This document shows positions 15,571 through 18,502 of a stretch of DNA of 64,000 bases, one piece after another. Below the pieces are notes generated by a model that searched no databases, was not told the origin of the DNA, and saw only the letters and a list, made by a program, of their open reading frames with translations. The stretch's first letter is position 1. Each line of letters begins with the position of its first letter. Source of the stretch: Escherichia phage ph0021; the sequence record OP557970.1; one strand, written 5' to 3'. Position numbers and translations under genes: made by a program.

Positions 15571-16137
15571 TTATTTGCTTAGTTTAGTTATTATAGCTTC
15601 TGCGGCAGCTTTTAGCTTAGATGCGGTGTTAATACGATTTTTAATTTCAGTATACGCATCGCCAAGAACATCAAGGCTATCGGAATAAACACTTACACTA
15701 TTGCGTTCGCTATTTGAAATAGAACCTTTAGTTTTGCGATCAAAATCGGTGTACACGTCTTGAAGATCACGGGCTGCCTTCTTTGCATCATCCAATGCAT
15801 CAAGAGCTTTATTCAAAGCATTAACATATTTTTTAGTGTCGAACATATTCTTAGAAATTTTGACAGGTGCACGTTCAGGAGTAGCTAAGGCAGATTTAGG
15901 AAGAACCTGTTTGCCAGATGCCAGTTTCTTAGAAATTTTGAAAAACGCTTTATTGAAATTATTTTCTTGACTCATCGTAAAAGAACTATTATCAATGTTA
16001 TACATTTCAATAGCTTTAGCTTTCCACTTAAGAAAATCGCCACGGTCTTTTGGGTCCAAGTGGAAGAATACTTTAGTAAGATCTGCTTCAGATGGTAATT
16101 TTGCTGCTTCGGTTAAAAATTCGGCGTAGGTTTTCAT
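15571..16137 (-). CDS. Internal-protein-like protein with capsid-targeting leader
   Basis: 188 aa; N-terminal MKTYAEFLTEA (LxE motif) as in T4 internal proteins. Confidence 0.55.
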   Translation of the reverse strand: MKTYAEFLTEAAKLPSEADLTKVFFHLDPKDRGDFLKWKAKAIEMYNIDNSSFTMSQENNFNKAFFKISKKLASGKQVLPKSALATPERAPVKISKNMFDTKKYVNALNKALDALDDAKKAARDLQDVYTDFDRKTKGSISNSERNSVSVYSDSLDVLGDAYTEIKNRINTASKLKAAAEAIITKLSK

Positions 16138-16218: not shown

Positions 16219-16247
16219 CTAAAAAGCCCCAACCTTTTGGTCGGGGC
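16219..16247 (-). terminator. Rho-independent terminator
   Basis: Minus strand GCCCCGACC-AAAA-GGUUGGGGC followed by UUUUU after the stop at 16256. Confidence 0.5.
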
Positions 16248-16255
16248 TAAGAATG

Positions 16256-16525: not shown

Positions 16526-16730
16526 CTAAACTTTTCCAGGCCATACTAACTGCATTTCCCGTAAATCCTTCTGCTTTCATGTCGCGAGCAAACTGGAATC
16601 GTGATTCGTCAGAAGCATCTTTATAGGAATATTTACCCGCTGCAATGGCTGCTTTTGCGACAGCTTGAATTTCGGTGCTAGATGCTTCATTTAACACCGC
16701 TTCATTTAAAAATTGAGCATATGATTTCAT
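16437..16730 (-). CDS. Internal-protein-like protein with capsid-targeting leader (possibly truncated by frameshift)
   Basis: 97 aa; N-terminal MKSYAQFLNEA; stops 3 codons after an A8 homopolymer; late promoter 30 nt upstream. Confidence 0.5.
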   Translation of the reverse strand: MKSYAQFLNEAVLNEASSTEIQAVAKAAIAAGKYSYKDASDESRFQFARDMKAEGFTGNAVSMAWKSLVATGAAFAKASGKPAPKADPKAAQEKKYR

Positions 16731-16768: not shown

Positions 16769-16797
16769 TGTATTTATACTAAAAAGCCCCAACCTTT
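16769..16797 (-). terminator. Rho-independent terminator
   Basis: Minus strand GCCCCGACCGAAAGGUUGGGGC followed by UUUUU, at the 3-prime end of the noncoding RNA region. Confidence 0.5.
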
Positions 16798-17110
16798 CGG
16801 TCGGGGCTAAGCCTTGCGGCAACCTTGTCGTGGTTCCACCTGCTAAGGCAAGTGTTTGTACGAAACGCCGGGATTCGAACCCGGTTATTAAGTAGTTGAC
16901 GCTACTCAATATTTTTAAAAGGCCATATCTCGACCATATCCGAACGTTCCGTCAAAAACGCTACTCGGCTTACGGCAAAGATATTTCCTCGAATCGATAA
17001 TTCGGTGCGCCGTTTCTGCTGTGATAGTAAAGAGCCAGAACACAGTAAAACTGTGGGAGGAAACTATACTCCAGGGAACATCAGTCCGACGACTTACCGG
17101 TAGCGACCCG
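16798..17110 (-). ncRNA. Candidate stable structured RNA(s) downstream of tRNA-Arg (position of T4 species 1/2 RNAs, rnaC/rnaD)
   Basis: About 310 nt with no ORF; tRNA-like T-arm CCGGGTTCGAATCCCGG, several hairpins, terminator at 3-prime end. Confidence 0.35.
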
Positions 17111-17115
17111 GTTTC

Positions 17116-17466
17116 TTAATATTCTTTTAAAGAATCAATATATTCACGGCGTTTACGCCACAAATCAATTGCTTCATACGCGGATTCAGCATTTCGAATT
17201 AGCCGGCATTTATGTAAAGACTTATGATTTTGATATTGTGTAGATAACGGAATTGTATCTAAAAGGTCTTTACGATCAAAATATTCGTAACCATCTAAAC
17301 CAAATGAACGATTTTTGAGAAATTGCCAATGACCATATTCGTTTTCGACATAAACATAATCTGCATGCTGATAAAGCAAATTAATTACACGTTCAGAAAT
17401 AACAGTATCATTATGATTAAAATAGAATGTTAAATCATGAACTACTAAATAAACATTACCTTTCAT
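17116..17466 (-). CDS. Hypothetical protein (116 aa) within the tRNA region
   Basis: ORF between tRNA-Arg and the noncoding RNA region. Confidence 0.5.
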   Translation of the reverse strand: MKGNVYLVVHDLTFYFNHNDTVISERVINLLYQHADYVYVENEYGHWQFLKNRSFGLDGYEYFDRKDLLDTIPLSTQYQNHKSLHKCRLIRNAESAYEAIDLWRKRREYIDSLKEY

Positions 17467-17484: not shown

Positions 17485-17560
17485 TGGTCGAGGCAGTAGG
17501 GATCGAACCTACGACCTAGGACTTAGAAGGTCCTTGCTCTTCCTTCTGAGCTATGCCCCG
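17485..17560 (-). tRNA. tRNA-Arg (anticodon UCU), CCA encoded
   Basis: Hand-folded cloverleaf: 7-bp acceptor, GCUCAG D-arm, anticodon loop CUUCUAA, T-loop GGTTCGATC, discriminator A. Confidence 0.8.
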
Positions 17561-17564
17561 TAAT

Positions 17565-17640
17565 TGGGGTGACCGATGGGAGTCGAACCCATGACTACGA
17601 GAATCACAATCTCGAGTTCTACCAACTGAACTACGGCCAC
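17565..17640 (-). tRNA. tRNA-His (anticodon GUG), CCA encoded
   Basis: Hand-folded: anticodon loop UUGUGAU, discriminator C73; no G at -1 encoded (U at -1). Confidence 0.7.
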
Positions 17641-17754
17641 ATTAATACCTACTCCAACAATCAAGATGTCTTCACACGAAATTAAGAGAAGAGTGATCAG
17701 TTCAACCCCTATAATCGCGTCAAGTAGATATTAATGTGACAGTTGTCACAAATT

Positions 17755-17829
17755 TGGCGGACGTGATAGGATTCGAACCTATAACCAATCGCTTAACAGG
17801 CGATCGCTCTGCCATTGAGCTACACATCC
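17755..17829 (-). tRNA. tRNA-Asn (anticodon GUU), CCA encoded
   Basis: Hand-folded: anticodon loop CUGUUAA, discriminator G73, T-loop GGTTCGAAT. Confidence 0.75.
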
Positions 17830-17833
17830 AAAT

Positions 17834-17920
17834 TGGTGGGGAGTGATGGAGTCGAACCACCCGAGTCGCAATGACAATGGATTTACAGTCCACACCGCTA
17901 CCTCTACGGGATAACTCCCC
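17834..17920 (-). tRNA. tRNA-Tyr (anticodon GUA), type II, CCA encoded
   Basis: Hand-folded: anticodon loop CUGUAAA, long variable arm, discriminator A73. Confidence 0.75.
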
Positions 17921-17929
17921 AAATTAATT

Positions 17930-18004
17930 TGGTGGCCCTGGGTGGAATTGAACCACCATCTGGCGATTATGAGTCGCTTGCTTGAACCTTCCAGCTACAG
18001 GGCC
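17930..18004 (-). tRNA. tRNA with CAU anticodon (Ile by analogy to T4, or Met)
   Basis: Hand-folded: anticodon loop CUCAUAA; sits next to tRNA-Thr where T4 has tRNA-Ile. Confidence 0.7.
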
Positions 18005-18005
18005 T

Positions 18006-18081
18006 TGGTGCTGATTGACGGAATCGAACCGCCGACATCCTCATTACAAGTGAGGTGCTCTACCTACTGAGCTAAATCAGC
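18006..18081 (-). tRNA. tRNA-Thr (anticodon UGU), CCA encoded
   Basis: Hand-folded: anticodon loop CUUGUAA, 7-bp acceptor GCUGAUU/AAUCAGC. Confidence 0.8.
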
Positions 18082-18086
18082 AAAAC

Positions 18087-18176
18087 TGGCGGAGGCGATA
18101 GGATTTGAACCTATGAGTCGCCGGAGCGACTGCCGGTTTTCAAGACCGGTGCATTAAACCACTCTGCCACGCCTCC
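18087..18176 (-). tRNA. tRNA-Ser (anticodon UGA), type II, CCA encoded
   Basis: Hand-folded: anticodon loop CUUGAAA, long variable arm, discriminator G73. Confidence 0.8.
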
Positions 18177-18178
18177 AG

Positions 18179-18252
18179 TCTCCGTGGCAGGATTTGAACC
18201 TACGACATTCTGCTCCCAAAGCAGACGCTCTACCAAACTGAGCTACACGGAG
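18179..18252 (-). tRNA. tRNA-Pro (anticodon UGG), CCA not encoded
   Basis: Hand-folded: anticodon loop UUUGGGA; 3-prime end abuts tRNA-Ser 2 nt away (Pro-Ser dimer as in T4). Confidence 0.8.
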
Positions 18253-18262
18253 TAAATTGAAT

Positions 18263-18336
<74 letters not shown>

Positions 18337-18341
18337 AAATT

Positions 18342-18428
18342 TGGTGCGAGAAGTGGGACTCGAACCCACAAGGAAATCATTCCGCAGCATTTTAAGTGCT
18401 GTGCCTTTACCAATTTGACCATTCTCGC
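18342..18428 (-). tRNA. tRNA-Leu (anticodon UAA), type II, CCA encoded
   Basis: Sequence GCGAGAATGGTCAAATTGGTAAAGGCACAGCACTTAAAATGCTG... recognised as T4-like tRNA-Leu. Confidence 0.85.
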
Positions 18429-18429
18429 G

Positions 18430-18502
18430 CTGGGAATAAAGGACTCGAACCTTTGCATCTAGCAGTCAAAGTGCTATGCCTTACCAACTTGGCTAATTCC
18501 CA
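18430..18502 (-). tRNA. tRNA-Gln (anticodon UUG), CCA not encoded
   Basis: Hand-folded: anticodon loop CUUUGAC, U1-A72 pair, discriminator G73; 3-prime end abuts tRNA-Leu (Gln-Leu dimer as in T4). Confidence 0.8.

Follow-up and report, generated by a model that had tools for sequence, protein, structure and literature searches.

What is encoded in the noncoding stretch that closes the tRNA operon of Escherichia phage ph0021? We analysed 64,000 nt of its genome (OP557970.1), hereafter the window; the phage is a T4-like Tequatrovirus. An initial annotation, made from the sequence alone, had delimited about 310 nt at 16798-17110, downstream of a tRNA-Arg gene, and had matched them by position to the T4 stable RNAs of species 1 and 2, rnaC and rnaD. 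We find that the interval carries the orthologues of T4 rnaD and rnaC, placed at the 3' end of the tRNA operon. The overall best explanation, to which we assign a probability of about 0.8, is that of rnaD and rnaC orthologues with covarying folds that travel as passengers of tRNA operons. The locus is read on the minus strand, in coordinates of the window; all features located below in the window lie on that strand.

Orthology with T4 rnaD and rnaC

In T4 (NC_000866), rnaC (species 1, 139 nt) occupies positions 70908-71046 and rnaD (species 2, 119 nt) positions 71053-71171; rnaD begins 1 nt past tRNA-Arg, and rnaC begins 6 nt past rnaD. In the window, an rnaD orthologue of 116 nt (17119..17004) is followed by a 6-nt spacer, GAAUUA (17003..16998; AAAUUA at the same place in T4), an rnaC orthologue of 139 nt (16997..16859), a hairpin-rich trailer and an intrinsic terminator. 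The whole element spans 17119..16780, in place of the narrower limits first proposed. Gene order, strand, the length of the spacer, trailer and terminator are the same as in T4. Both RNAs were delimited by alignment to T4 and by covariance models, R1 for rnaC and R2 for rnaD, each of which finds a single copy in the window (160.3 and 113.6 bits, respectively).

Direct alignment to the annotated T4 genes bears out this identity. The window and T4 rnaC are identical at 138 of 139 nt. In rnaD, the first ~46 nt match T4, barring the extreme 5' end and one indel, and the last 22 nt (AUCACAGCAGAAACGGCGCACC) are identical; the central ~45 nt are not alignable with T4 and represent instead the variant common to phiWec190 and PBES02/POP17. 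As a textbook feature of T4, known there since the 1970s, the locus is expected in a T4-like phage and ordinary for such a genome.

An 801-nt query spanning the locus matches 762 phage records, the best being OR584013 at 100%. No other GenBank record is 100% identical; this one bears the name 'Pseudomonas phage PsgM02F' and gives Pseudomonas coronafaciens as host. Despite the label, its sequence is that of a typical Escherichia/Shigella-type Tequatrovirus. Many other Tequatrovirus records match the locus in two pieces spanning ~1,286 bp, and thus hold ~485 bp extra.

The positional match to T4 holds for order, strand and spacer, and the pair does lie at the end of the tRNA operon, but not directly downstream of tRNA-Arg. 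The last gene of the tRNA cluster, tRNA-Arg(UCU) (17560..17485; ARAGORN and Rfam), is separated from rnaD by an open reading frame (ORF) of 116 aa at 17466..17116, whose stop codon overlaps the rnaD 5' leader. It matches phrog_3355 (function not known) and has no Pfam match. T4 has no ORF between the two genes, and its rnaD starts 1 nt past the CCA of tRNA-Arg, a spacing that the window does not share. This displacement is positional variation rather than a family-defining failure; other Tequatrovirus records have the same arrangement.

The multiple hairpins noticed at the outset are consistent with the folding energies: the 351-nt region folds far better than shuffled sequence (z = -5.71), and so do rnaC alone (z = -4.56) and the trailer with the terminator (z = -4.75). 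The trailer (16858..16809) has three small hairpins, and is conserved in T4, JS10, MN01 and VR7. The terminator of the tRNA/stable-RNA operon (16808..16780) has a 10-bp stem, a GAAA loop and a U tract; its sequence, AGCCCCGACCGAAAGGTTGGGGCT followed by TTTTT (16808..16785), is the strong 3' terminator that the initial annotation had recognized.

No Rfam family matches the interval at the gathering threshold, and with E-values up to 10 only sub-threshold tRNA-like fragments appear in it: tRNA-Sec (RF01852), with 17 bits where 47 are required, and mascRNA, with 14 bits over a 17-nt T-arm match only. The tRNA model (RF00005) gives no hit at its gathering threshold, and ARAGORN makes no tRNA call in the interval. 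Likewise, no tmRNA was found in it by ARAGORN or by Rfam, even at E-values up to 10. Searched by blastn against 5,426 complete E. coli genomes, neither the region nor the rnaC 3' minihelix has a match.

A predicted tRNA-shaped fold for rnaC

We compared rnaC across 29 distinct sequences; apart from unclassified relatives, their sources are Tequatro-, Gapriver-, Kanagawa-, Karam-, Moon-, Gelderland- and Marfavirus. The comparison predicts a tRNA-shaped molecule, with four arms in cloverleaf order. The share of paired cells in this fold is 94%; column shuffles give 84.5%, and sliding the partners gives 37-51%. Double changes occur in 19 pairs, a number reached in 0 of 500 shuffles.

The acceptor-like stem of 7 bp (C2-G8 with C131-G137; T4 numbering, as below) joins CGAUUCG (16996..16990) to CGUUUCG (16867..16861). 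At its pair 4-135, 14 sequences have A-U and 15 have G-C; the two U·U mismatches at the centre of the stem are kept in all 29. The D-arm position is taken by P2, a 70-nt irregular hairpin (16989..16920; 9-78) whose helices covary. An A/U-rich linker joins it to the P3 hairpin (16911..16886; 87-112), which stands at the anticodon-arm position, with a 6-nt loop and double changes in 8 of its 9 stem pairs. Across two very different P2 sequence forms, the length of P2 is held at 70-71 nt and that of P3 at 26 nt. Three linker nucleotides then lead to a canonical T arm, CCGGG-UUCGAAU-CCCGG (16884..16868; 114-130), which adjoins the 3' acceptor strand directly. It is the tRNA-like T arm (CCGGGUUCGAAUCCCGG) of the initial annotation; its stem covaries (G-C in 15 sequences, U-A in 12) and it matches the T-arm segments of Rfam tRNA-like models. 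Conservation in rnaC is highest in the acceptor-like stem and its U·U pair, at the junction and in the loops of P2 and P3.

Other pairings were rejected. The alternative acceptor used by ARAGORN and Rfam tRNA-Sec (ACGGAACG/CGUUCCGU, also written ACGGAACG/CGUUUCGU) is broken in CIP9 and Melville-type sequences. Pairing of the rnaD 3' GAAACG with the rnaC 3' CGUUUC, which appears in the minimum-free-energy fold of the 351-nt region, is not conserved; it was discarded because rnaC lacks an adjacent rnaD in other genera and its acceptor covaries with its own 5' end.

A candidate loop-loop interaction in rnaC

The apical loop of P2, UUGACG (16955..16950), is complementary to the P3 loop, CGUCAA (16901..16896), and this six-base complementarity is kept in 29/29 sequences. 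Both loops are invariant outside Marfavirus, while the stems vary freely. In Marfavirus (Klebsiella phages) they read UUGGCG/CGCCAA, a compensatory change from A-U to G-C; the variable pair is A-U in 25 and G-C in 4 of the distinct sequences. The pattern is suggestive of a kissing interaction between P2 and P3. Added up, P3 (~10 bp), a 6-bp kiss and the apical P2 helix (4-6 bp) roughly equal the remainder of P2 (18-22 bp) in length; with the fixed sizes of P2 and P3, these matched lengths give a geometry that fits an intramolecular fold-back. We found no description of P2-P3 pairing in the literature searched, which leaves out the classic papers of the 1970s, and claim no priority.

A predicted three-helix fold for rnaD

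For rnaD, 18 sequences were aligned by MAFFT and 42 distinct sequences were aligned to the covariance model. They point to a three-helix RNA, unrelated to rnaC, with an invariant closing helix. The alignment of 42 leans towards structure, having been fitted to the model; its share of paired cells is 90.1%, compared with 67.8% for shuffles and 32-42% for slid partners. The MAFFT-based count is 86.6%, against 72.3% in shuffles.

The first helix, H1, is the hairpin ACCGG-GUCGCUA-CCGGU (17112..17096; 8-12 with 20-24 in rnaD numbering, as below). All six of its pairs show double changes among the 42 homologues, and its stem sequence is lineage-specific, with forms such as UCGGG/CCCGA, ACAGGG/CCCUGU and UCCAUGA/UCAUGGA; in Certrevirus it carries an insertion of ~50 nt. 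The closing helix H2 is long-range: its 5' strand, G-[bulged U]-CGUCG (17093..17087), lies inside the invariant AAGUCGUC and pairs with CGGCGC (17012..17007), through G27-C113 and, past the bulged U28, 29-33 with 108-112. H2 is paired in 42/42 homologues and its U·G pair is invariant; elsewhere in the helix, compensatory changes turn G-C to C-G (28 vs 14) and G-C to A-U (40 vs 2). The tail ACC that follows is present in 21/42 homologues, and T4 ends with ACCA. H3, AGUAUAG/CUUUACU (17070..17026; 50-56 with 88-94), has double changes in all 5 modelled pairs and encloses a variable inner hairpin, H4, which reads CACAGU-UUU-ACUGUG in the window. The invariant motifs of rnaD are AAGUCGUC, YCCCUG and GGCG. 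A competing hairpin, AGUC-GUCG-GACU, was set aside: phiWec190, PBES02 and PM2 do not preserve it, and show compensation in the long-range H2 instead.

The comparison of homologues shows both RNAs to be under selection for structure, and covariation supports the fold of each.

rnaC and rnaD are independent modules among tRNA genes

Outside T4-like phages, rnaD also occurs in Vequintavirinae and Stephanstirmvirinae. Among the former, an rnaD-like element lies directly after tRNA-Met in W70 and, in the genus Certrevirus, between tRNA-Ser and tRNA-Asn in PBES02 and between tRNA-Lys and tRNA-Asn in POP17. In phiWec190 (Stephanstirmvirinae, Phapecoctavirus) it is found between tRNA-Tyr and tRNA-Thr, and in myPSH1140 (Karamvirus) and KpV477 (Jiaodavirus) between tRNA-Asn and tRNA-Asp. 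As for rnaC, Melville and SonariX have it flanked by tRNA-Trp and tRNA-Gly, and in CIP9 and Klebsiella phage EI it follows tRNA-Met. Both rnaC and rnaD lie among or beside tRNA genes in all lineages for which the neighbours were examined, and their junctions look like tRNA-tRNA junctions, CCA then AAUUA; the spacer GAAUUA itself resembles the CCA-AAUU spacers that separate the tRNAs of the window cluster.

The two RNAs are independent modules. JS10 has rnaD without rnaC, Melville and SonariX have rnaC without an adjacent rnaD, and in CIP9, Moon and Marfavirus contigs both are present, apart from each other. Pattern scans of metagenomes and IMG/VR for rnaC added little diversity beyond GenBank phages. 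With a loose rnaD pattern, the matches listed across bacterial genomes were chance-like and came mostly from GC-rich genomes.

Homologues of both RNAs are widely mis-annotated in GenBank, where many records put 'hypothetical protein' coding sequences (CDSs) over them; among the records listed, rnaC/rnaD labels are found only in T4 and a few RB phages. In SonariX a 95-nt 'tRNA-Met' is annotated over part of rnaC, and in PG7 and kv_tblp phages a tRNA-Met feature lies under the match.

The tRNA cluster of the window holds, between tRNA-Asn and tRNA-His, a third structured noncoding stretch (17754..17641), which is unannotated and folds with z = -4.36. Its conservation extends to 355 phage records, from a subset of Tequatrovirus and from Klebsiella, Enterobacter, Salmonella and Erwinia phages. 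The stretch shows compensatory changes in a long closing helix when compared with Melville and SonariX, and was not seen in the T4 region examined. Upstream of this element, Melville (L005:966-1060) and SonariX (L003:1040-1135) have a further noncoding segment of ~100 nt between tRNA-Gln and tRNA-His, near-identical in both phages and absent from the window. In phiWec190, a tRNA-like sequence that ARAGORN does not call (L045:~530-596) immediately precedes the rnaD-like element and is covered by an annotated CDS; its acceptor reads GGACUUG/CGAGUCC and its T arm GCAGG-UAUCGAAU-CCUGC.

Possible functions and their alternatives

What do these RNAs do? Acceptor/T-arm minihelices are the type of substrate recognized by RNase P and by 3' trimming enzymes. 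The resemblance of the rnaC minihelix to such substrates suggests that its tRNA-like module is a processing and recognition handle, for excision and stabilization. In the scheme that we propose, host tRNA-maturation enzymes would cut both RNAs out of the polycistronic tRNA precursor: RNase P would make the 5' end of rnaC, with endonuclease cleavage and exonuclease trimming at the CCA-like junctions, and the excised RNAs would accumulate owing to their compact folds. The P2-P3 pairing would lock the 6-nt loop at the anticodon position in a duplex, so that rnaC could not decode.

Our preferred, though tentative, proposal is that rnaC is a non-decoding tRNA mimic, which would occupy or recruit a host or phage factor that recognizes tRNAs. 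As for rnaD, an H2 of invariant sequence that includes a bulged U and a U·G pair, a constant CCCUG motif and horizontal spread to unrelated Enterobacterales phages suggest that it binds a host factor of Enterobacterales, most likely as a sequence-specific ligand or scaffold. More speculatively still, rnaC, rnaD and the element at 17754..17641 could be 'tRNA-operon passenger RNAs' that spread horizontally among large Enterobacterales myoviruses. rnaC, its anticodon-position loop locked by an internal kiss, would then serve as an uncleavable and non-decoding tRNA decoy, or as an adaptor, directed at a host factor or defence that targets tRNAs; rnaD would bind a different host factor in a sequence-specific way.

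The literature bears on this in few places. As the initial annotation had stated, reviews and omics papers still list the functions of rnaC and rnaD as unknown (PMC3014915, PMC9697503, PMC12685909), and no functional or structural study of them was found in the literature searched. In T4, RNAC and RNAD are classed as late RNAs, with a northern blot by an RNAC probe (PMC9697503). In the T4-like phage BW1, every line evolved on ECOR34, a semi-permissive host, acquired a single-nucleotide polymorphism (SNP) that maps to the rnaD region (PMC12685909); it is the sole functional hint in the literature, and hints at a host-specific function.

Several points weigh against our interpretation. Taken alone, rnaD is not thermodynamically exceptional (z = -0.19). 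The CIP9 clade of rnaC has the T loop UGCAUGC instead of UUCGAAU, so recognition of the T loop and elbow is not universally kept, and rnaC is not followed by an encoded CCA, with the possible exception of Marfavirus. The covariation of the two loops amounts to one evolutionary event, in Marfavirus, which makes the support for their pairing suggestive and not statistical; moreover, the kiss may form within one rnaC molecule or between two, as a head-to-tail dimer. In this phage, the 5' end of rnaD cannot arise from the tRNA-Arg junction used in T4. T4 deletions that remove rnaC and rnaD are viable on laboratory hosts, and the present analysis identified neither a partner nor a phenotype for either RNA.

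The viability of such deletions, like the location of both genes in or beside tRNA clusters with tRNA-like junctions in the lineages examined and the 50 years without a function found (PMC3014915), would suit passive by-products, or cis-acting spacers that aid folding, processing or termination of the tRNA precursor and have no function in trans. We nevertheless consider this explanation rather doubtful: processing would not need the strongly conserved loops and joining strands (UUGACG/CGUCAA, the tandem U·U, AAGUCGUC and CCCUG), rnaD has spread into unrelated phage subfamilies, both RNAs accumulate stably in T4 (PMC9697503), and the SNP in the rnaD region recurs under host adaptation (PMC12685909). 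That one or both would act as small RNAs (sRNAs) by base-pairing with phage or host mRNAs, for example with UUCCUCC of rnaD facing a Shine-Dalgarno sequence, is improbable. Most rnaD variants do have UUCCUCC, UUCCCUC or UUCCUCU inside H3, but T4 rnaD has no single-stranded CU-rich motif, the invariant parts of rnaD are either helical (H2) or short motifs with no obvious complements, the two loops of rnaC would pair with each other, and no target was identified.

The remaining explanations, a decoding tRNA, a ribozyme and small proteins, were each rejected on the features tested. An unusual decoding tRNA, very unlikely in our view, would account for the 95-nt tRNA-Met called by ARAGORN and some GenBank annotators (SonariX L003:1554-1648) and for the weak tRNA-Sec alignment; yet the acceptor so called is ACGGAACG/CGUUCCGU, which does not survive in CIP9 and Melville-type sequences, whereas the covarying one uses the true 5' end. 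At the anticodon position stands an invariant loop of 6 nt that complements the P2 loop, and the interval itself yields neither an ARAGORN call nor an Rfam tRNA hit at threshold. Self-cleavage by rnaD through a hammerhead-like core is scarcely credible: CUGAUG after H2 and GAAAC before the H2 3' strand are present in window and T4 rnaD, but the former is not conserved (homologues have CUGAAG, CAGAGG, CUAUG or CACUUUAA), the junction has no third stem and no Rfam ribozyme matches even at E-values up to 10. Small proteins, to which many GenBank records assign the homologous region as 'hypothetical protein' features, have a next to negligible probability. The initial annotation had seen no ORF here, and only short mechanical ORFs of 32-50 aa are indeed found, with TTG/GTG starts and running through the terminator; T4 annotates both genes as stable RNAs, and homologues differ by 1-nt indels (138-142 nt) and compensatory stem substitutions, which make coding unlikely.

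Genes around the locus

Upstream, the tRNA cluster of 11 genes (18502..17485; ARAGORN and Rfam) compares with 8 genes in T4, Tyr, Asn and His being gained. A tRNA with the anticodon CAU, called Met, follows tRNA-Thr, in the place of the T4 tRNA-Ile; segB is absent between this tRNA and the distal ones.

Downstream of the terminator, a motif search finds TATAAATA (16778..16771), the T4 late-promoter consensus, ~41 nt upstream of the ATG at 16730. The late promoter announced by the initial annotation is thus present as a motif, but the gene that it precedes, described there as an internal-protein gene, is only leader-like to internal proteins. This gene of 97 aa has the N-terminal leader MKSYAQFLNEA, and its 188-aa paralogue, the next gene (16137..15571; both phrog_2280), starts with MKTYAEFLTEA; such MK[ST]YA[QE]FL.EA leaders resemble the capsid-targeting leader of T4 internal proteins. 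Beyond the N-terminal leader, neither paralogue has BLASTP similarity to T4 IPI, and the 97-aa gene matches no named family; the 'internal protein' label would rest on the leader only. T4 has e.8 downstream, in the place of these paralogues. Near-identical terminators, AGCCCCGACC[A/G]AAAGGTTGGGGCT, flank the 97-aa gene (16225-16248 and 16785-16808).

Relation to other RNAs and significance

In comparison with T4, the window thus differs in the 116-aa ORF before rnaD, in the central ~45 nt of rnaD and in the genes that follow. rnaC resembles a canonical tRNA (RF00005) in its 7-bp acceptor-like stem, set directly against a 5-bp T stem that carries a UUCGAAU loop, in the cloverleaf order of its four arms, in its place within tRNA operons and in its junctions of the CCA-AAUUA type. 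It differs in having a 70-nt hairpin instead of a D arm, no encoded CCA, a paired 6-nt loop at the anticodon position and two invariant U·U, and it remains below every tRNA threshold.

Non-decoding tRNA-like RNAs that are excised by tRNA-processing enzymes, or mimic their substrates, include mascRNA (MALAT1), those of gammaherpesvirus 68 and the tRNA-like domains of the bacterial YrlA Y-RNAs. By analogy, rnaC would share with them the concept of a tRNA-like module, plausibly recruiting RNase P and tRNA enzymes; it has no sequence or Rfam relationship to them, and has in addition the P2-P3 kissing. Kissing complexes with fully paired loops of 6-7 nt are formed by HIV TAR-TAR* and ColE1 RNAI-RNAII. 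rnaC likewise has two perfectly complementary 6-nt loops, which could form a quasi-continuous helix, but both lie in the same molecule, and its pairing is supported by comparison only.

rnaC and rnaD are among the oldest known noncoding RNAs of phages, and yet they have no Rfam family or assigned function. Models of the two RNAs would correct their widespread mis-annotation in GenBank, as 'hypothetical protein' CDSs or a 95-nt 'tRNA-Met'. rnaD is found in three unrelated lineages of myoviruses, among or beside tRNA genes where checked. Finally, the covarying folds, the loop-loop pair, the tandem U·U and the invariant H2 open the question of function to specific and cheap experiments.

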